Positions 2,490 to 31,758 of a DNA stretch of 32,000 nt are shown here, piece by piece. A program made the translations under genes and the position numbers. The notes beneath the pieces are model-generated. The model saw only the letters and a list, made by a program, of their open reading frames with translations. It was not told the origin of the DNA and searched no databases. This stretch comes from Candidatus Saccharimonadota bacterium (GTDB lineage Bacteria; Pseudomonadota; Gammaproteobacteria; Enterobacterales; Enterobacteriaceae), in NCBI GenBank assembly GCA_036689235.1, contig CP144769.1, positions 148,481-180,480 of the forward strand. The letters are read 5' to 3'. The first letter of the stretch is position 1. Each line of letters starts with the position of its first letter.

Positions 2490-2797
2490 TTATATTATAT
2501 AATAAATTATTATTATAATTTTAAAATATAAATAAAAATAAAAAAAATATTAAATATTTTAAAATAAATTATTTAATTATTATATTTTAAAAAATACTTT
2601 TTTTATAAAAAAAATAAAGTAAAATAAATATTTTTTTGTAAATTTTAATATAAATATTTTACTATATTATATTTAAAATATTTAAAATAATAAATAATAA
2701 TAATATATATTATAATATTAATTATTTTTTAATATTATTAATATATTATAAAAATAAATTAATAAAATTAATTATAAAAATATTAAATAACATAATA

Positions 2798-3448
2798 ATG
2801 AATATTAATAAATTATATAAATTATTAAAATTTTCAAATAATAAAAATAAAAAAAAAAATTATAAAATAATAAGAAAATATTTAAATACAATATTATTAT
2901 TTAATTTATTTATATTTATTATATTAATATATTTATCTAAAATATTAATTTTAACTTTTTTAAAATATAAAAAAATAAATATTAATTTAATATCAAAAAA
3001 TATAATAAATTATTCAATAATAATATTTCCATTAATAATAAATAAAATATTAATATATTTTTTATATTTAAATAAAAATAAAAACAAAAATAATAAAATA
3101 TATATTTTTATATTAATATTTATACAATTATTAAATATAATTATTACTAAATTATTTAAATATTCTAAATTATCATCATTAATTATTATATCTCATTATA
3201 TAAATATAATTACAATTTATTTAAAATTAAAAAAAAAAAAAATAATAAAATTAAAATATAAATATAAAAAATTTATTTTTAAAATAATAATATCTTATAT
3301 AATAATAATATTAATATTAAATTATATAACAAAAAATTTAATAAAAAATTTTATTAATCTGAACTTTATATCCAGATTAATAAAATTATTGTTAATATTT
3401 AGTATTAATATATCCTCATATATATTTATATTATTAAAATTAAAATAA
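2798..3448 (+). CDS. Hypothetical multi-pass membrane protein (orphan)
   Basis: A 216-codon ORF with no TAA or TAG. That is very unlikely by chance here, since about 9% of random triplets should be TAA/TAG. It has 5-6 long Ile/Leu/Phe-rich hydrophobic segments separated by Lys/Asn loops. I recognise no family motif. It follows a 308-bp spacer that is nearly pure A/T. Confidence 0.5.
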   Translation: MNINKLYKLLKFSNNKNKKKNYKIIRKYLNTILLFNLFIFIILIYLSKILILTFLKYKKININLISKNIINYSIIIFPLIINKILIYFLYLNKNKNKNNKIYIFILIFIQLLNIIITKLFKYSKLSSLIIISHYINIITIYLKLKKKKIIKLKYKYKKFIFKIIISYIIIILILNYITKNLIKNFINLNFISRLIKLLLIFSINISSYIFILLKLK

Positions 3449-4935: not shown

Positions 4936-5015
4936 ATATATATTATAAATAATTATTTAATAATAAACTATTATTTTAAATAAAAATTAATAATTTTTAA
5001 TAAGATAATAAATCA

Positions 5016-5020
5016 AAGGA
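5016..5020 (+). promoter_or_regulatory. Shine-Dalgarno-like AAGGA upstream of rne
   Basis: aaAAGGAataaaATG, with a 5-nt spacer. This is one of very few G-containing motifs in the 90-bp rluC/rne divergent spacer. Similar AAGG elements precede acpP, rpmF, infC and ybhL, but most other genes lack one. Confidence 0.35.
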
Positions 5021-5025
5021 ATAAA

Positions 5026-6237
5026 ATGAAAAAAATTTTAATAAAATTTACAAAAAATGAAGAATTATATATAGCATTAATAAAAAATAAAAAATTATAT
5101 GATTTAAATATAGAAAATAAAAAATATAAAAATAAAAAATTAAATATATATAAAGGAATAATATCAAAAATACAACCTGGATTAGAAGCAGTATTTATTA
5201 ATTATGGAGAAAAAAAAAATGGTTTTTTACCTATTAAAGAAATATCTAAAAAATATTTAAAAAATAATTTATATAAAGGTCAAGAATTAATTGTTCAAAT
5301 AAATAAAGAAGAAAGAAATAATAAAGGTGCTTTTTTAACTACATTTATAACTATAATAAAAAATAATTTAATATTAATGCCAAATAACCCTAAATTATTA
5401 GGAATATCAAAAAAAATAACTGGAAATAAAAGATATAAATTAAAATTAATAATTAAAAAATTAAATTTACCAAAAAATATGGGCATTATAATACGTACTT
5501 CAGGTATTAATAAATCATTAAAATTATTAAAATTAGATTTAAAATTAAGTATAAATAAATGAAAAAAAATACAAAAAAAAATGAATGAATTAAAAAAACC
5601 AAATTTAATATATAAACAAAATAATATATTAACTAAATTATTGAGAGAATATTTATATGAAAATATAGATGAAATATTAATAGATAATTATAAAATATAT
5701 AAATTAGTTAAAAAATATGTAAAAAAAATAGATAAAAGAAAATTTAAAAATAAAATAAATTTTTATAATAAAAAAATATCATTATTTAAATATTTTAAAA
5801 TAGAAAAACAAATAGAATTAATATATAAAAGAAAAATAATATTACCTTCAGGTGGATCTATAATTATAGATAATACAGAAGCTTTAACATCAATAGATAT
5901 AAATTCATCAAAATATATAAAAGGATCAAATATAGAAACAACAGCTTTAAATACAAATTTAGAAGCTTCTAAAGAAATAATTAGACAATTACGTTTAAGA
6001 AATATAGGAGGTTTAATAGTAATAGATTTTATAGATATGATTTTACATAAAAATCAAAAAATAGTTGAAAATAATTTAAAAAATATTATAAAAAAAGATA
6101 AAGCAAAAATTCATATTGGATATATATCCAAATTTGGATTATTAGAAATGTCAAGACAAAGAATAAATAATTCTTTTATAAAATCAAATTATTATATATG
6201 TCCAAAATGTAATGGATCTGGTAATATAAAAAAATAA
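5026..6237 (+). CDS. rne: Ribonuclease E/G catalytic core (minimal RNase E)
   Basis: 403 aa. Track ORFs 5026-5562 and 5581-6237 share a frame and join through TGA at 5560 (LSINK-W-KKIQ; E. coli LKHWEAIKK). It has an S1 domain (NIYKGIISKIQPGLEAVFINYGEKKNGFLP), the catalytic aspartates (IIDNTEALTSIDINS and GGLIVIDFIDM), LLEMSRQR, and the Zn-link CPKCNGSG, followed by only IKK and TAA. Confidence 0.9.
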
Positions 6238-6378: not shown

Positions 6379-8844
<2,466 letters not shown>

Positions 8845-9617: not shown

Positions 9618-11489
9618 TTAAAAAATTAATTTTTTAATAAAATTATTACATTTATTATTTTTTTTTTTTATACAATTTAAAAATATATCTTTATTAGAAT
9701 AAATAGTAATTTTTTTTTTAGCTCTAGTAATAGCAGTATATAATATTTCTTTATTTAAAATATTAGAAAAATAATTAGGTATAATTAATAAAATATGATT
9801 AAATTCAGATCCTTGAGATTTATGTACAGTAATTACTCAAGTTAATTTTCAATTAATAAAATTATTAAAATAAATAATTTTATATTTATTATTAAAATCC
9901 GGAAAAAAAATTTTTATTATATTATTTTTATAAACTATAAATCCTATATCACCATTAAATATATTTAAATCATTATTATTTTTAGTAATTATAATTGGTT
10001 GACCAACATAATAAAATTTATTATTAATAATAATATATTTTTTAATATATTTATTTAAAAATAAATTATTAATATATTTATTTAAATATTTAGAACCTAA
10101 TATAGAATTTTTTATTATAGATATAATTTGAAATTTATTAAAATAATATAAAAATTTATTATATTTAAGATTACTACTATTTAAATAATTAATATAATAT
10201 TTATATTTTTTTAAACATAAATTAATTAAAAAATTATAATTAAATTTATCTGAATCATAAAAATTTATATTACAATTAAAATTATTATTAATTATAAATT
10301 TATCAATTTTATTATAATCACCATAATTTATAAAATTAGAAAATATATTTAAATATTTATTTTTTTTAAAACGATAATTTTTTAATAAAAATGATATATT
10401 ATTATTTAATTTATTAATATTTAATAATATTTTATTAAAATTTATTTTCTTTTTTAATAAAAAATTTAATAATTTACTTTTTTTTTTAAATAAAGAATAA
10501 TTATAATTACATATTTCATTTAAAAATGAACAAGATTCTACAGGACCTATTTGATTACTATCTCCTAAAAATATTATTTTTAAAAAATTATCTTTTAATG
10601 AAATAAGTAAATAATATAATGTGACTACATCAATCATAGAAAATTCATCTATTATTAAAATATTAAAACTTAAATTATCACTTTTATTAATATTTATTTT
10701 ATTAAAATTTAAATAATTTAATAATTTATGTATTGTTGTAGCTTTATTTGGTAAAATATTATAATATTTTTTATTAATATTTAATAAATTATAATTTTTT
10801 TTTAATATATTAGTTAAATTAGAAGAAGATTTTCCAGTAAAAGAAACTATTTTAATAAAATCTTTATCTTTTATTTTATATATTTTATATAAAATTAAAA
10901 TTAATTTAACAATAAGAGTAGTTTTACCTGTACCTGGTAAACCAGAAATAAAAGATATTTTATTAAAAAAAACATTTAAAATACAAATTTTTTCATATAT
11001 ATTAAAATTATTTTTTTTTATTATATTAAATATAATATTTATTTTTTTTTTTTCTATTATACTATTTTTATTAATATTTTTTTTAAAAAAAATTACTATA
11101 TAATTTTCATATATTCAAAATTTATATAAATAAATACAATCTTTATATAATATAAAAGGAGTTATATCATTTTTATAATAAAAACTTATCAAATTATATT
11201 TAAATAATATATTTATACTATTATCAATATTTATATATTTATTAAAAAAATATATTAAAAAATTATATATATATTTATTAAATATACTTTCATTAATTAT
11301 TCTATAAATTGGAAGACATGTATGTCCTAATCTACTAGATAAACTAACTAAAAAACTAAATAACATAATAATAGAATAATTAAAATTATTTTTTTTAAAA
11401 TAAAATTTTGAAAAATATATTTCTAATAAATTAGCTTCTTTTCTTTTATAACATGATCATAAAAAATTTTCTATTTCATTAAAATACAT
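9618..11489 (-). CDS. recD: Exodeoxyribonuclease V alpha subunit RecD
   Basis: 623 aa. Track ORFs 9849-10637 and 11115-11366 are in one frame, and I found no TAA or TAG between them. Matching segments: GHTCLPIY and PFILYKDCIYLYKFW (E. coli GHVCLPL, PMILCGDRLYLNRMW), Walker A ISGLPGTGKT, IIDEFSMIDV, IFLGDSNQIGPVE, and the C-terminal VITVHKSQGSEFNHILLIIP...ILYTAITRAKKK. Confidence 0.9.
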
Positions 11490-11501
11490 AACTAATACTT
11501 A

Positions 11502-14500
11502 TTATTTTTTTAACAAATCATTTAATTTAAAAATTAATTTTTTATTAGGTTTAATAAATAAAATACCATTATAAGATCTATAATTATTTTCAATAAATAA
11601 ACCTCTCATGAAAATATAATATATACCACCAAAATTTAAAGAATAATCATAATTTTTAATAAATAAATTTAAATAATTATGTAAAGCAATAGAATATATT
11701 TGATATTGAATATCATACCTTTTAAAAATTATATTTTTTATAATATTAGTTTTATTATAATATAAAATATTATTACCAAATCAATTTGATTTATAATCAA
11801 CAATATAATATTTTTTTTTATATAAAAAAATTAAATCTATAACACCATTTAAATAACCTTTAATATATTTTTTTATACTTAAATTATCACATAAACATGA
11901 AATTTTATCATATTTATTTATAATAATATTATATTTACTAAAATTAAATTTTTTTATATTCAAAAAAAAATCAAATTCTTTTAATAAAAAATTAATATTA
12001 ATATTTATTAAATTTATATTTAATGGATATAAAATAACATTTAATATATTAAATAATATTTTTTTAATATTAAAAAAATATTTTTTTTTAATATCAAAAA
12101 TATACATATATTTTAATAAAAAATTATTATTTATATTTTTATTAAATTTAATTTTTTCTAAAATTTTATGAAAAAATAATCCTACATTTTTACCTTTAGG
12201 TAAATTAATAAAAAAAATATTTTTATTTAAATTATTATTATTATAATTATTAATTAATAATTTATTATTTTTATTTAATAAAATAATTTTAGAATAATTA
12301 ATTATTTTATTAAATATTATTTTTTTTTTATTATTTATATAATTATCATCTAATAAATATTTTATAATATAAAAATTATTTTTTTTTATATAATTAATAA
12401 TATTAATAAAATTAAAATTAATATATTTACACTTATTAAAACTAAAAATTTTATTATTAATTTCAGAAAAATTAAAATTTTTATTATTACCTATAATTCT
12501 ACCTATAGAACTAAAACAAAATTTTAATTTTTTATTAAAATTTTCATATAAAATAATATTACACATATATACAGATCTAGTAATAGATACATATAATAAA
12601 CGCATTTCTTCAGAAATTATTTCTTCATTCATTAAATTATTATATTTTTTAATACCTAAAAAATCTATATTAGTTTTACAATTTTTACGATTATGATAAA
12701 TATTAAAATTAATATTATTATTTGAATAAAATAAAAAAGGTATTCAAACTATATTATATTGTAAACCTTTTGATTTATGTATAGTAGATATTTTAATTCC
12801 ATTATTTTCATAAGAAAAAGAACGTAAATAATATTCTTTATTATTATTATTAGAAGAATTATTAATTTTATTATTTAATCAAATTAATAATAATAATTTA
12901 TCATTAATATAATAAAATTTTTTTTCTAAAATTTCAGATATATGTAATATATTTAAATTATATTGTTCATTTTTATAATTTAAAAAATTATTAATATTTT
13001 TATTTTTTATAAAAAAATTTAATAAACAATAAATACCATATTTATTTAAAATATTATAATAATAATAAAAATCATCTATAATTTTTATATATAAATTATT
13101 ATGATTAATAATTTTATTTATATCATTTAAATTATAATTAAATAAATTAGTAGACAAAGCATTTCTAATATTTAATTTTGAATTAGGAAAAATAACAGCT
13201 TTTAATAAAAAATAAATTTCTTTAGCTTCTAAAGAATCAAAAACATTACTTTTATTTAATATACAATTAATGGGTAAAAAAAATTTTTTTAAAGTATTAA
13301 AAAAAATTTTTATTTCATAATTTTTACGAACTAATATACAAATATCAGAAGGTAATATTTTTCTTTTATTTTTATTATTTTTATATATATAAATATTATT
13401 GGAATTTAAAATTTTATATAATTTTATTGAACAAAATTTAGCTATTTTATTTTTATAATTTAAATTATTTAAATTATTTAATATATAAAAATTCATACTA
13501 TTAAATATTTTATTTTTATTTTTAATAATTAAATTTTTATTTTTATAAGAAGGTAAAATAGATAAATAATTAGTATCTTTAAAAATAAATGGATTATTAA
13601 TTTTATTAAATAAAAAATTTATACTTTTTACTAAAAAAAAAGAAGATCTTCAATTAATATTTAATATATATAAAAAATCAATATTATTTTTAGATTTAAT
13701 ATAACTAAATATATTAGCTCCTCTAAACGTATATATTGATTGTTTTGGATCACCTATAAATATTATTTTTGTGTTATCAAATTTATTTTTTATATATATA
13801 TTATAAAATATATTATATTGTAAAAAATCAGTATCTTGAAATTCATCTATTAAAGATAAAGGATAATTTTTTCTAATAATTTTTATAAAAGAATTATTAT
13901 AATTATTAACACTTAATATATTATTTAATTTACTTATTAAATCATTAAAACTAATAAAATTATTTTCTTTTTTATAGCAATTTAAATTATCTTTAATATA
14001 TTTTAAACATTTAAATATAACAAAATTATATAAATTATTAATTTTAATATATAATTTTTCTATTTTAATAAAAATATATTTAATATCTAAATTTATAAAT
14101 AATTTATATTTAATAATATATTTATATTTAAATTTTTTTAAACAATAAGGAATATAAAAATTGATAGTCTTAGAATTACATCATAAATTTATAATATTAA
14201 ACCAATTATTTATAATTTTATTATTAAATAAATTATAATAATTATTTAAATTAATAAAAAATACATAAATATTATTATAATTTTCAATTCATTCTTTTTT
14301 AAATTTATTAATAAAAAATATAATTTTATTATAACAATCTTCAATAGAATTATATTTTTTAATATTATTAAATTTAAAATCAATAAAATTTAAAATAGGT
14401 AATATAAAATTATATAATTTTTCAGGAGTAGATCAATAAAAAAAAATTATTTTACTTAAATTATAAGATAATTTATAAAAATATTTACGTCAAAAAAATA

Positions 14501-14981
14501 TTATCATTTTATAAATTAAATTATATTCATAATCTAAAATTTTTAAAGAATTATTTATATTAGAATTAATAAAATAAGAAAATAAAATTTTTTTACAAAA
14601 ACTATGTATAGTATATATAGAAGAAATATCAATATTATTTTCATATTGTATTAATATATCTAGTATATTAGGAATATTTTTAATATATAAAAATATATGT
14701 TTTATATAATCATTTAAAAATATATTTTTTATAAAACAAATACGTAATTTTCTTAAATTATTAAGTATTCTTTTCTTAATTTCTAAACATGCTAAATCAG
14801 TAAAAGTAACAATTAATATATTATTTATAAATAAATTTGAAAATTTATTTTCTATATTTATATTTAATAAAAAACGTAAATATAATAAAGATAAAATATT
14901 TGTTTTTCCAGTACCAGCCGATGCTTCTATTAAATTAGATTTACCTAAGTATATATTTAAAAAATCTATATTATTTATCAT
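11502..14981 (-). CDS. recB: Exodeoxyribonuclease V beta subunit RecB (helicase-nuclease)
   Basis: 1159 aa. I hand-checked all inter-fragment gaps (12633-12878 and 13497-14489) and found only TGA, no TAA or TAG. Matching segments: LIEASAGTGKTNILSLLYLRFLL, LIDEFQDTD, IGDPKQSIYTFRGANIF, NINWRS, HKSKGLQYNIVWIPF, LLYVSITRS, the nuclease motif GVIDLIF...YYIVDYKSNW, and RYDIQYQIYSIALHNYL...FGGIYYIFMRG. Confidence 0.93.
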
Positions 14982-14993
14982 AAAATTAAAATA

Positions 14994-17900
14994 TTAATAA
15001 TATTTTATATTATTAATTATTAAATTATTAAAAACAGGTAATAATCATTTTTCTATTTTATTTATTATAAAATTAATATTTAAAAAATTATAATATTTAT
15101 TAATTATATAAGATATATAAATATCATTTATTTCTCCTTTAATAAAAAAATTTCCATATAAAATATTAAATAATTTTTTTTTAGCTTTAATAATATAGTT
15201 TTCATTTAATAAAATTTTATTATTAATATTATAAGCAGATAATATTCATATATTAGAAGATTTAGGTAAAAAAAATAAAGGATAATTATAACTATTTAAA
15301 TATGCATTTACATATTTATTAATATAATAAATACATTTATATTTATTTATTGGTTTTAAACATCATATTCCATTATAACCATATAAATAACTATAATTAA
15401 TACCACCTTTATAACAATATACTAAATGATCTATTCAAAATAATAAAGCATCTATTAAATTTAAATTTTTAGGTAATCATTTAATTAAACCTAAATTATT
15501 ATATTGATTAATATAACCTTTTATATAAAAATTATGAAATTTTACATTTATAAAAACTTTATTAATTTTAAAATAATATTTCTTAATATTACTAATTAAA
15601 TAAAAAATATTTTTTTTTTCTTTTTCTCATAATATTTTACCAAAATAACTTAAAGGTAAAAAATTTAAATTTTGTAAATATAAAAAAATATTTTTATTAT
15701 ATCCATATTTTATAAAAATATCTATTATTTTATATCTAAAAAAATAAATTTTTTTAATATCTAAATCAAAATATTCATTTTTACTAATATATATATTAGA
15801 AATAAAATAATTTATTTTATGAAAATAAAATAAAAAATATTTAATAGGATTAGATCAAAAATTATGTAATTCATTTAAACTAATAATATATTTTTTTTTA
15901 TAAGTTTTAAAATAATTTTCTTTATTTATATAATTAAAAATATTTAAATTATATTTTTTAAATATTATATTTCTTTTTAAATAAATATATTTTTTTTTAT
16001 TTAATTTACTAAAAAAATTTTTATATAAAAAAATATTTATATAATTTTTAAAATAAACTAATAAAATAGAAGGAAAACAAAAATTATTTTTTAAAAAACA
16101 AAAATTAATATAACTTATATATAACTTATCACAAAATAAAATTTTTTGTAAAAATAAATATTTATCATAACTTATTTTATCACGATCACCTAATCTTGAA
16201 TTAATATTAATTAAATTAAAATCACAAAAATCTTTATTTTTAGGATACATATTTTCATTCATACCTATTAAACATGTAATTTTAAAAAATAAAGATTCAG
16301 AATAAATAAATGAACAAAAATTTATAGAATTTATAGAATATATTTTTTTTTTATTTTTATTTTTTAAAAAAAATATTAACATTTTTTTAAAAATATTAAT
16401 ATTTATATATTTATTAAATTTATATATATTATAAATATCTATAATATTTAAAAAATTTTTTTTATTTAAAAATATACTTTTATTAATATATTTCTTATAA
16501 AAAAAAGTTTTTATAAATTTTATACAAATAAAAATTCAATTATTAAATAAATATTTTTTATTTAAAATATCTTTTCAGTATAAAATTTTAAAAATAAAAT
16601 CACATATTTTTTCTATTAAATTATAATAAAAATTATTAGAAAAAAAATTATAAGGTATAATATTATTTCAAATACAATTTTCATTATTTATACAAAAACC
16701 TAATAAAATTCTTTTTAAACTATTTATTCAACTTAAATAATTAAATTTTTTAAAATTAAAAATATCATTTTTAGAATTTACATTTAAACCTATATTTTTA
16801 ATAATATATATTATAATTTTTAATTCTTCATAATTTATATTAAATTTTTTAAAAATTATTTTTTTTTTTAAAAAACACAATAATTCAATAAAATTAAATT
16901 CTAAATTAGATATATTTAATAAATTTAAAAAAATGTTTAATAATTCATTTTCATAAATATTATTACATTCTAAAATTTTATATGGTAAATATCTTTTATA
17001 TTTTAAATCAGAAAAAACAGATTTAATATATGGATAATATTTATTAATATTAGTAACATTTACTATTATGTCACTAGGAACAATATTTTTATTTATAATT
17101 AAATCTAATAAAAAATTTTTTAAATTTATTATTTCTTCTAAATAACCATAAGATTTATTAATTATTATAGAATCATCTTTATTAAAATTTTTATTTTTAT
17201 TATTTATAATAACATCTTTAAAATTTAAAATATTATTTTTAATAATATCCAATTTACTTTTTTTTTTTATATTTAAAAAATAATTTATTTCTTTTATATT
17301 AAATTGTAATAATAATAATAATAATTCAGAAAGACTTTTTCCATAACTTAATAATAAAGAATTATTATTATTTTTATTTTTATAAAAATTAAAAATTAAT
17401 AAATCTTTTTTTAAATTATTTTTATTAAAAATATTATTTTCTTTATTATTAAAATAAAATGTTTCATATCAAAATTTATAAGAAGGATTAAATAAAAAAT
17501 AATAAATATTTTTATAATTAGATATTAAATATAAAATATTTAAATAAATTGGAGGTATAAATGAAATATTAAATATACAAATATAATCAATAAAATTTTT
17601 AGGAAAAATAAAATTTTTATTTCTTAAAATTTTTAGAATTCTAATATAAATATTAGATTTATTTCACTTATATGAAAAATTATTAATAAAATATTTTATT
17701 ATTTTTCTTCATAATATAGATTGTCATTTTTGATGTAAACAATCAATATTTTTAATTAATTTATAATTACTTCATTCATATAACCAATCTATTCTATACA
17801 TCAAATATTCATCAAATATATTAGATATTTTTATAGATAAATTAAACAATTTATTATAATTATAATCATTTTTTAAATATTTTTTAATAGAATAAAATTC

Positions 17901-18221
17901 CTTTAAATTAATAACTTTAGGTAATATATTAAATATTATTCAAACTAAATTATATTTATTAAAATAATATTTTTTTGATAAATTAGATATATTTTTTTTA
18001 CAAAATTTTCATATAAAATCACCTATTAATAAAAACTTAAAATTTGCACATATACCTATATTTTCAGATAAAAAAATTTTTAAATTTAAAGATATATTAT
18101 TATTAGAAACTAATATAAATATTTTTGATAAAAAAATATTGTTTATAATATTTTTTTTAATTATATCTAAAATATTTTTTTTTAAAATATCTAAATTATT
18201 AGATTGATACAATATAAACAT
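14994..18221 (-). CDS. recC: Exodeoxyribonuclease V gamma subunit RecC
   Basis: 1075 aa. The three track fragments (15855-16382, 16728-17252, 18009-18221) are in one frame, and the hand-scanned gaps contain only TGA. The N-terminus MFILYQSNNLDIL...GICANFKFLLIGDFIW matches E. coli MLRVYHSNRLDVL...GIAANIDFPLPASFIW. NIFDEYLMYRIDWLYEW matches DLFDQYLVYRPDWLAQW. There is a 12-nt gap to the recB start. Confidence 0.9.
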
Positions 18222-18232
18222 ATACTTAAAAA

Positions 18233-18751
18233 ATTAATTAATAAATTTTTTATAAAAATTAAATTATTTATAATTATAGACATAAATAATAAAAAAATAC
18301 AAAAATAATAATCATTTTTTTTATTTAAAAAAAAATAAAAAATAGGAATTCTAAATTTTATTTTATAAGGTCATAAAAAAAATACACCTTTATAAGTAAA
18401 CATATCACAAAAAATATGACTAAAATAACCTAAAAAAATAGCAAAAATTATATCAAAATTAAATTTTAAAAAAAATATATTAATATATATAATAAATAAA
18501 ATCAATAATATTAAACCTAAAAAACTATGAGTAATAGTTCTATGTCCAAATAAATTAAATATCATAATAGATATAAATTTAAATTTATATCCTAAAAAAG
18601 ATCTAGGATGGTCTATATCAGGTATTAAACATGATAAAAAAGAAATAGGAATAATACGTAATAAATCTAAGTAAATATTTAATTTTTTTAAAAATTTTCA
18701 AAAAAAAATTATAAATGATAAACAAAAAATTAAATGATTTTTTACACACAC
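18233..18751 (-). CDS. ydjM: Inner-membrane metal-dependent hydrolase YdjM family (DUF457)
   Basis: About 172 aa. LSCLIPDIDHPRSFLGYKF, FGHRTITHSFLGL and LGYFSHIFCDMFTYKGVFFLWP match E. coli YdjM (LLPDIDHPKSFLG, FGHRGFTHSLL, GYLSHILADMLTPAGVPLLWP). There is no in-frame ATG near the N-terminus. I propose a GTG start at 18749-18751, preceded by AGG at a 6-nt spacing; ATT at 18755-18757 is the alternative. The stop is 11 nt upstream of the recC ATG. Confidence 0.8.
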
Positions 18752-18858
18752 AAAAATCCTATTTTATTTAATAAAAATTAATATATAATTATAATAAAGT
18801 TTTAAATTATTTAAAATATAAAAAAATTTAAATATGAAATATAATAAATAATATAAAT

Positions 18859-20058
18859 ATGTTAAAAAATAGAGATCATAGAATAATAAATAAAAATTTA
18901 AATTTATATCATATTAGTAATATATCACCAGGAATGGTTTTTTGACATCAAAATGGATTTATTTTATTAGAAAATATAAAAAATATAATAAGAAAGAAAT
19001 TAAAAAAATATAAATATGAAGAAGTAAATACTACATTTTTGATAGATAAAAATATATGAATTAAAAGTGGTCATTGAAAAAATTATAAAAAATATATATT
19101 TCATACAAAATATAAAAATAGAATATTATGTATAAAACCTATGAATTGTTTAGGACATATAGAAATATATAAACAAAAAATAAAATCTTATAAAGATTTA
19201 CCTATTAGAATATCAGAATTTGGAATATGTCATAGAAATGAAAAATCTGGATCATTACATGGTTTAATGAGAACAAAATCATTTATTCAAGATGATGCAC
19301 ATATATTTTGTACTAAAAAAAAACTTAATATAGAAATATTAAAATGTATAAAAATGATTTATGAAGTATACAAAATTTTTAATTTTAAAAATATAAAAAT
19401 ATTTTTATCTACAAGACCAAATAAATATTTAGGTAATAAAAAAATATGAAATAAAATAGAAAATAAAATTATTAAATTATTAAAAAAAAAAAATATAAAA
19501 TTTAAAATTAAAAATGAAGAAGGTGCATTTTATGGTCCAAAAATAGAATTTATTTTAAAAGATTGTTTAAATAGAGAATGACAATGTGGAACTATTCAAA
19601 TAGATTATTTTTTACCTAAAAAATTAAAAATTATATATATTAATAAAAAAAATATAAAAAAAAATCCTATAATTATACATAGAGCAATTTTAGGTTCATT
19701 AGAAAGGTTTATAGGAATAATTATAGAAGAATATAATGGAAAATTACCAGTATGATTAGCACCAATAAAAATAGTAGTAATAAATATTTCAATAAAAAAT
19801 TTAAAATATTCAAAATATGTATTAAATAAATTAATAAAAAATAATATTAATTCTATAGGAGATTTTAAAAATAAAAAAATAAATTATAAAATAAAAAAAT
19901 ATACTTTACAAAAAATACCTTATATAATAATATGCGGTAATAAAGAAGAAAAAAATAAAATAATAAGTGTAAGATCATATATAAATAATAATTTATATAA
20001 AATAACATTAAAAAAATTTATTAAAAAAATAAATAATAAAATAAAAAAATTTAAATAA
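18859..20058 (+). CDS. thrS: Threonyl-tRNA synthetase, catalytic core plus anticodon-binding domain only
   Basis: 399 aa, fully hand-translated. It starts [29 protein letters not shown], which aligns to about residue 240 of E. coli ThrRS (RDHRKIGKQLDLYH..APGMVFWH). The Zn ligands are kept ([23 protein letters not shown]). An in-frame TAA at 18829-18831 and the ydjM start at 18751 leave no room for the N-terminal domains. Confidence 0.95.
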
Positions 20059-31035: not shown

Positions 31036-31758
31036 ATGAACAAATCTATTAAAATTAAAAAAAAAAAAAAAAATTTTTATAGAAATAATTTAAGTAAAAT
31101 ATTAAATTTTTTTTTATATAAAATATATTATTTTAATAAAAAAAACATAAAAAAAATAATAAATTTTTTTAGTAAAAAATATAATTTTCATAATTTAAAA
31201 AAAATATTTAAAAAAATATCTTTTATAATAGATAAAAAAATATTAAATATATATAAAAAAAAAAAAATATATAAAAAAATAAATATATTATATAATTTAA
31301 TAGTAAAATTAAATAATAGTCATATATATATATATATATATATATTATATAATAAAAAAAATTTTTTTTTAATAAAAATAGATTTAGAAATATATACATA
31401 TAAATATTTACCATTAAAAATAATAAATTACTTAATTTCAAAATTTAAATCAGATATAATATTAATTAATTATAAAATAACAAAATTTATAAATAAAAAA
31501 AATATATATAATAAATATAAAATAAAATCATTACAAAATTTTATAAATAAAAAGTATAAAAAAAAATATGATTTACTAGATATAAATTTATATAATGAAA
31601 ATATATTCCAAACTAAAATGATAATTAAAAAAATAAATTTAAAGAAAAATATTTTTAATTATAAAAATAAAAAATTTAATAAAAAAAAAAAAATAAATAT
31701 ATTACAATTAATATGAAAAGAAATTAAAAAAATATATTATAATAAAAAAAAATTATAA
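31036..31758 (+). CDS. Hypothetical Lys/Asn/Ile-rich protein (orphan, or too diverged to recognise)
   Basis: 240 codons with no TAA or TAG (one TGA at 31714). It starts 7 nt after the glnS stop. I recognise no catalytic or family motif. It contains an A17 run (31057-31073, KKKKK) and an in-frame (AT)12 repeat. Its last two codons overlap the 3' end of map on the other strand. Confidence 0.45.
31322..31345. repeat. (AT)12 dinucleotide microsatellite inside the orphan ORF
   Basis: Perfect atatat...at run of 24 nt, read in frame as HIYIYIYI. Confidence 0.9.

Follow-up and report, generated by a model that had tools for sequence, protein, structure and literature searches.

The RecBCD genes treated here have their closest counterparts in 'Candidatus Stammera capleta', a pectinolytic bacterium that lives with tortoise beetles. 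Its use of genetic code 4 has been known since 2017; it has lost prfB, and its type strain has a genome of 15.4% GC with 255 coding sequences (CDS). Stammera genomes span 0.21–0.33 Mb, their chromosomes are reported to be highly syntenic, and published work describes Stammera as an extracellular symbiont. The Baktfold preprint (2026) mentions a RecBCD 'putative operon' in the Stammera assembly GCA_036689255, so the Stammera recBCD operon is already public and known. The locus described here lies in a 32,000-nucleotide (nt) stretch of contig CP144769.1 (assembly GCA_036689235.1, positions 148,481 to 180,480 of the forward strand), referred to below as the window, where recC, recB and recD follow a homologue of ydjM. 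The block is very probably the orthologous Stammera recC-recB-recD, predicted to encode a complete RecBCD (exonuclease V) with its canonical function alongside RecA.

A search with the RecB of the window returned about 40 NCBI genomes of 212–326 kb, whose RecB proteins are 42–82% identical to it and are full length in about 39 genomes. Among these is CP024013.1 (271,175 bp), 'Candidatus Stammera capleta'. The RecB proteins of Buchnera, Blochmannia, Donacia symbionts and others come next, at ~35% identity (35–40% for Buchnera and Donacia symbionts). By these sequence relationships the window is assigned to another strain of this code-4 beetle symbiont. A search of genome contigs with RecC returned no relatives, a result likely caused by strain-specific peptides and by TGA-encoded tryptophan. 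The window has 10.4% G+C, and the low value was considered as the mark of an unusual strain. This was rejected, as the matching region of the type strain has 11.2% GC against a genome mean of 15.4%; the region is more AT-rich than its genome, so the composition of the window cannot be extrapolated to the whole chromosome.

Gene Block and Reading Frame

When translated with table 11, the region between 9.6 and 18.8 kb contains only open reading frames (ORFs) of fewer than 300 codons. Reading TGA as Trp, as in code 4, resolves it into four uninterrupted, co-oriented genes on the minus strand. The first, ydjM (18191–18751), encodes 186 aa from a GTG start and has two in-frame TGA codons read as Trp. 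It is followed by recC (14994–18221, 1075 aa), whose Trp codons are 18 TGA and 1 TGG, by recB (11502–14981, 1159 aa), which encodes an SF1A helicase with a C-terminal PD-(D/E)XK nuclease, and by recD (9618–11489, 623 aa), which encodes an SF1B helicase.

This reading is sound because the predicted Trp residues align with those of E. coli and the frames are far longer than chance allows. The four proteins have 34 Trp positions (32 TGA, 2 TGG), 30 of which align with a Trp of the E. coli orthologue, including 9/9 in RecB and 18/19 in RecC. At the composition of the window a random codon is TAA or TAG with a probability of 0.10, and frames of 623–1159 codons would stay open by chance with a probability of 10^-30 to 10^-55. 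In 200 shuffles no stop-free run exceeded 112 codons, compared with 1163 observed, and the two alternative frames of each gene contain 71–231 stops.

The original prediction, made from the letters of the window, had described an intact, stop-free recC-recB-recD with a ydjM homologue, and under code 4 it is borne out. Its protein lengths and coordinates are correct, as are the 12-nt spacers between recC and recB and between recB and recD. The rec genes, put there at about 8.6 kb or 27% of the window, total 8604 nt (26.9%), and ptrA is indeed missing from its place between recC and recB. All four genes share one orientation and lie close together as described, except for the spacing at the first junction. 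A spacer of 11 nt had been given for ydjM-recC, but the in-frame stop of ydjM (TAG, 18193–18191) lies downstream of the recC start (ATG at 18221), and the two genes overlap by 31 nt. The divergent spacer between ydjM (minus strand) and thrS (plus strand) was likewise placed accurately (18752–18858, 107 nt) and is the presumed site of the promoter or promoters. It contains, on the minus strand, the Shine-Dalgarno (SD)-like purine motif AGGA (18757–18760), 6–9 nt 5' of the ydjM GTG, with a putative role in translation. Searches of the window for tRNAs and Rfam families gave no match.

Subunit Identity and Catalytic Motifs

The identity of the three subunits is supported at the level of families, structures and active sites. 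RecB matches TIGR00609 over residues 6–1157 with 719.2 bits (cut-off 696) and aligns with E. coli RecB (PDB 1W36_B) at E = 1.9e-145, while RecD scores 366.6 bits against TIGR01447 (cut-off 310). RecC is matched over its full length by NF008289/TIGR01450, though below the TIGR01450 equivalog cut-off, and contains PF04257 (192.8 bits) and PF17946 (67.2 bits), both far above their cut-offs. YdjM matches PF04307 with 91.5 bits (cut-off 29) and NF008651 with 135 bits. In end-to-end pairwise alignments with E. coli K-12, the Rec proteins are 26–28% identical (RecC 25.6%) and YdjM is 37.6% identical.

The residues required for catalysis are conserved in both motors and in the nuclease. RecB keeps its Walker A sequence (EASAGTGKT), DEFQD, GDPKQ and motifs V and VI, along with the nuclease residues H956, D1067, D1080 and K1082, found in FFHKILE, GVIDLIF, IVDYKSN and QYQIY. 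RecD keeps Walker A (GLPGTGKTT), DEFSM, TVHKSQGSEF and YTAITRAK, and its motifs III, V and VI are present. For RecB and RecD alike, the window and five other Stammera strains conserve Walker A together with motifs II, III, V and VI. Alignment thus confirms that both helicase Walker A sites and the RecB nuclease motif (IDLIF...VDYKSN) have been kept, as the original prediction stated.

RecA and the Proposed Role of RecBCD

The interpretation of a RecBCD enzyme in a reduced genome depends on whether RecA accompanies it. Buchnera is known to lack recA, and a mainly exonucleolytic role by analogy with Buchnera had been suggested for this locus, together with a search of the genome for recA. The RecA motif TTGGNALKFY, written in AT codons, was used to scan the GTDB species-representative genomes and matched five Stammera chromosomes, each with an intact ORF of ~328 aa. 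In a protein search seeded with one of these ORFs, RecA turned up on over 30 contigs of Stammera size, among them those of the type strain and of the closest relatives of the window; identity among close strains is 91–96%. One of these proteins, P0241 (335 aa, in the P0123 90%-identity cluster), is encoded on a contig of 239,864 bp, as is the RecB of the window, and scores 485 bits against the RecA equivalog TIGR02012 (cut-off 325). On this sequence evidence, the genome of the window itself encodes an intact RecA, and therefore the analogy with Buchnera, in which RecBCD operates without RecA, fails. With RecA in this and more than 30 other Stammera genomes, the RecA-less role is unsupported.

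The same motif scan also matched two other small genomes. The match in the 226-kb weevil endosymbiont NZ_AP018160.1 (L022) is a full-length RecA, and CP099828.1 (L079, Shikimatogenerans, 164 kb) was matched as well. Beetle symbionts with tiny genomes may commonly keep RecA. A literature search for Stammera together with recA, repair or recombination found nothing specific.

Canonical function is the most likely reading because both motors and the nuclease residues are kept and the same genome encodes RecA. The enzyme would bind double-strand ends, such as those at broken or reversed replication forks, and would unwind and degrade them with RecB moving 3'–5' and RecD 5'–3'. The resulting 3' tail would then pass to RecA, which would use it in recombinational repair or to restart the fork.

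Chi Recognition

The original prediction had noted that the window contains neither a canonical Chi nor a LexA box in the spacer upstream of ydjM, and had drawn from the former that the enzyme may act mainly as an exonuclease or use a different, AT-rich Chi. The absences are real. No GCTGGTGG Chi with at most one mismatch is present in the whole window, where 0.08 would be expected by chance, and no CTGT-N8-ACAG with at most one mismatch, where 0.44 would be expected. The inference from absence does not follow, since at ~10% GC chance itself predicts about none of either, which makes both results uninformative.

RecC itself says more. Twelve RecC residues are reported to affect Chi recognition, namely Q38, T40, Q44, L64, W70, D133, L134, D136, 137, R142, R186 and D705, and Pseudomonas RecC keeps all 12 despite a different Chi (PMC5959072). 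The RecC of the window is identical at five of the 12 (L64, W70, D136, R142 and D705) and carries Q38S, T40N, Q44L, D133N, L134I, Q137E and R186K; positions 38, 40, 44, 133 and 186 also differ among Stammera strains. Recognition of an E. coli-type Chi is unlikely. The divergent channel weighs against such specificity but leaves membership in the RecBCD family untouched. One tentative and rather doubtful suggestion is that Stammera RecBCD recognises a new AT-rich Chi that co-evolves with base composition, or that it loads RecA without Chi; either, if true, would be an uncommon way of regulating an enzyme of the RecBCD type.

These observations bear on a different, Buchnera-type role, in which RecBCD serves mainly or only as a RecA-independent exonuclease, acting on linear DNA, reversed forks, over-replicated termini or foreign DNA with neither recombination nor Chi. 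The poorly conserved, strain-variable Chi-channel residues of RecC would fit such a role, as would the impossibility of an E. coli Chi at the composition of the window and the retention of recCBD in the reduced genome of Buchnera. Defence against foreign DNA is also conceivable for a symbiont described as living outside cells. This role is nonetheless unlikely: an intact and highly conserved RecA occurs both in this genome and throughout the clade, so the assumption that recombination is impossible no longer holds. Part of what RecBCD does may nevertheless be independent of RecA.

Selection on the Rec Genes

The large share of the window occupied by the rec genes had been taken as a sign of strong selection. 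That the genes are maintained by selection holds; that the selection is strong does not. Ratios of nonsynonymous to synonymous substitution rates (dN/dS) were calculated by the Nei-Gojobori method under code 4 between the window and its closest relative, CP144817 (L007). They are 0.47 for recC, 0.48 for recB and 0.57 for recD, compared with 0.22–0.38 for thrS, pheS, rne, rplT, rpmI, leuS, holA, infC and pheT; rluC has 0.69, and ydjM 1.04 over only ~100 synonymous sites. All of these values are inflated, because synonymous sites are held at A/T and dS is low, only ~0.2. Selection on recC, recB and recD is clearly purifying but relatively relaxed. At deeper divergence the Rec proteins are 36–50% identical, a level similar to that of holA and pheT but exceeded by thrS and leuS. 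Between the window and the named Stammera blocks, protein identity is 36–81%; the Rec proteins are 36–60% identical overall across six Stammera genomes, and all catalytic motifs are retained in all six.

Relaxed selection raises the question of whether the recBCD genes are decaying, non-functional relics. Their dN/dS lies above that of most housekeeping neighbours, RecC falls under its equivalog cut-off, and in three strains the RecB calls end at poly(A) tracts. Yet random sequence yields open frames of at most 112 codons against the 623–1159 codons seen here, active-site residues are invariant over deep divergence, and every Stammera genome in the sample has the rec genes. The one RecB break that was examined, in CP043989 (L134, 9600–9680), is a single homopolymer frameshift in an 18-A tract, with a perfectly conserved nuclease domain downstream, intact in the +1 frame; it points to homopolymer error or slippage rather than decay. 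The reading as relics is extremely improbable and effectively refuted.

The truncated calls occur in three other Stammera genomes (P0009, P0035 and P0041), where the called RecB breaks off at a poly-Lys/poly(A) run and does not reach the nuclease domain. For CP043989, an assembly error, a real frameshift and transcriptional slippage are all possible.

Several points weigh against a complete, canonical RecBCD. RecC scores 439.8 bits against TIGR01450, under the equivalog cut-off of 582.9, although such a score is consistent with a fast-evolving orthologue. For recC, recB and recD, dN/dS is roughly double the value of most of their housekeeping neighbours. The link between P0241 and the genome of the window rests on both contigs being 239,864 bp long. 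Finally, the Chi-dependent switch that couples RecBCD to RecA loading may be altered or lost, judging from the RecC channel.

Gene Order and the ydjM Junction

In E. coli K-12, ydjM lies 7.6 kb from thrS in divergent orientation, with hxpB directly upstream of ydjM, and recC-ptrA-recB-recD is found ~1.15 Mb from ydjM, with ppdC upstream of recC. In the window, ydjM diverges from thrS-infC-(rpmI-rplT)-pheS-pheT. As ydjM is near thrS and divergent from it in E. coli too, the adjacency of ydjM and thrS represents ancestral synteny compacted by deletion.

Gene order was compared in seven Stammera genomes, comprising the window and six relatives. CP024013 (L005) has thrS, then ydjM-recC-recB-recD, then holA-leuS-rne-rluC, with a 1-nt gap between ydjM and recC. 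The order is the same in CP144817, where ydjM and recC overlap by 31 nt as in the window, in CP144780 (L008), where the gap is 35 nt, and in CP043989 (212,704 bp), where ydjM is present but uncalled. In CP144853 (L009, 325 kb), thrS is followed by hxpB, an intact but uncalled ydjM and then recC. The Logan contig SRR23946976 (L010) has only 235 nt from thrS to recC, with no remnant of ydjM. In the outgroups, recC-recB-recD lies between mscS and argA in Buchnera and between mutH and rplS in the Donacia symbiont; both have lost ptrA and have no ydjM upstream.

Adjacency of ydjM and recC is thus found in six of the seven Stammera genomes. The original prediction had reasoned that a chance juxtaposition after deletion would leave the adjacency absent in all relatives; it is present in five of six. 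Its value as evidence of functional coupling is weak all the same, because gene order in Stammera is generally frozen, the synteny of thrS and ydjM is ancestral, ydjM has been lost in SRR23946976 and the outgroups lack the adjacency.

The intact GTG-start ydjM ORFs of CP144853 (6069–6620) and CP043989 (3280–3720) were left uncalled, and CP043989 has a 101-aa call on the opposite strand instead; gene calling probably missed these ORFs because they do not start with ATG. The locus in SRR23946976 is divergent and Stammera-like, with 16% GC and a RecB 40–42% identical, and its gap without ydjM spans 6379–6613; its rluC is covered by two separate calls, and infC has none. A further Logan contig, from SRR23525770 (L011, 22 kb, standard code), has recB-recD without recC immediately upstream. 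There, a short-chain dehydrogenase on the opposite strand precedes recB, and RecB is 32% identical yet outscores those of the named symbionts.

ydjM looks like a real gene, given its conserved start, the motif upstream and its signature residues. The GTG start lies at the same position in five strains and is replaced by ATG in the type strain. AGG(A/G) or AAGGTG is conserved at the upstream site in the window, CP144817, CP043989 and CP144780 despite ~10% GC, and recC, unlike ydjM, has no SD-like motif. The YdjM signature residues (LPDIDH, R..THS, SH..DM and WP) are conserved in five Stammera strains and E. coli. In E. coli, ydjM is SOS-regulated through LexA, and its product is a membrane protein resembling metal hydrolases.

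The four genes could therefore be viewed as a functional unit in which YdjM acts with or regulates RecBCD and the adjacency or overlap is selected. The junction in six of seven genomes, where ydjM and recC overlap by 31 nt in two and are separated by 1 nt in another and by 35 nt in a fourth, speaks for such a unit, as do the start and SD-like motif that ydjM has and recC lacks, the conserved signature residues and the retention of ydjM even in the 212-kb genome. Set against this are the recCBD of SRR23946976, directly after thrS, those of Buchnera and the Donacia symbiont with no ydjM upstream, and the distance between the two loci in E. coli. Moreover, a frozen gene order would conserve the junction with no selection on it, ancestral thrS-hxpB-ydjM synteny explains the position of ydjM, and the dN/dS of ydjM is ~1.0 in the closest pair. 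A functional unit is accordingly very unlikely, and on the gene orders compared ydjM is dispensable for the retention of recCBD.

The history of the block can be proposed as follows. Genome reduction would have removed ptrA, as it did in other Enterobacterales symbionts with reduced genomes, leaving recC, recB and recD 12 nt apart. The ancestral thrS...hxpB-ydjM neighbourhood would have been compacted and joined to recC early in the evolution of Stammera, after which the order became fixed. The compact recCBD block is a recurrent product of genome reduction, whereas the ydjM junction is a single, early, lineage-specific rearrangement kept in syntenic chromosomes.

Transcription and Replication Signals

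The four genes probably form one transcript, as their spacing suggests. They would be read from the spacer between thrS and ydjM, with ydjM as a passenger rather than an obligatory partner. Between 9300 and 19100 there are 192 promoter-like sites against 186 ± 15 expected, which is the chance level at 10% GC, and no G+C-rich terminators where none are expected; scans of this kind do not resolve transcription units at such a composition. A replication origin at the divergence of ydjM and thrS, near the GC-skew minimum at ~18.8 kb, was considered and rejected. The cumulative GC skew tracks the coding strand throughout the window, with no visible replication switch.

Flanking Genes

The murJ gene (2490–3448) looks truncated: its sole open frame (2654–3448) has 265 codons, or 216 aa from the ATG at 2798, and matches the C-terminal part of the MurJ of CP144817, compared with 499–512 aa for MurJ in four relatives. 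Just upstream, sufE (~2079–2489, motif GCQSNVW) is intact. ThrS (thrS, 18859–20058) comprises ~400 aa in the window as at every other Stammera locus seen; the E. coli protein has 642 aa, and the Stammera protein lacks the N-terminal third. The RNase E ORF (rne, 4984–6237) has 418 codons, compared with calls of 445–574 aa in relatives. Two ORFs are rich in Lys, Asn and Ile: one of 281 codons (1–843), which runs off the start of the window in the place expected for sufD, upstream of sufS, and one of 241 codons (31036–31758).

Significance

As a discovery the locus has little value, consisting of orthologues of a textbook enzyme in public genomes with an operon already mentioned in a preprint. 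Its interest lies in the retention of a complete RecBCD and RecA across the whole Stammera clade at 0.21–0.33 Mb, unlike the situation in Buchnera. This retention is in keeping with a symbiont that lives outside cells and is transmitted externally, and whose DNA may break more often. Recombination has been remarked to be minimal in Stammera; with RecBCD and RecA retained, that minimum reflects clonality, not missing machinery. The divergent Chi channel of RecC at ~10% GC offers a modest lead on the evolution of Chi specificity.

Comparison with Known Systems

A comparison with E. coli RecBCD (PDB 1W36) shows a shared enzyme in a different setting. Both have three subunits of near-equal length, 26–28% identical end to end, with identical ATPase motifs in both motors, identical catalytic residues in the RecB nuclease and a genome that encodes RecA. 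They differ in that ptrA separates recC from recB only in E. coli, while Stammera uses code 4 at ~10% GC. Seven of the 12 Chi-affecting RecC residues are changed in the window, where GCTGGTGG is unusable as Chi, and recC is preceded by ppdC in E. coli and by ydjM here.

The blocks of other Stammera strains (CP024013, CP144817, CP144780 and CP043989) are orthologous to that of the window and share its flanks and its code. They differ in protein identity (36–81%) and at the ydjM/recC junction, which ranges from a 31-nt overlap to a 35-nt gap; CP144853 keeps hxpB upstream, and the Logan contig from SRR23946976 lacks ydjM. Buchnera aphidicola and the Donacia symbionts, like Stammera, have lost ptrA and have a tight, co-oriented recC-recB-recD, but with other neighbours (mscS/argA and mutH/rplS, respectively), no ydjM upstream and the standard code. 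The Donacia symbiont, like Stammera, has recA.

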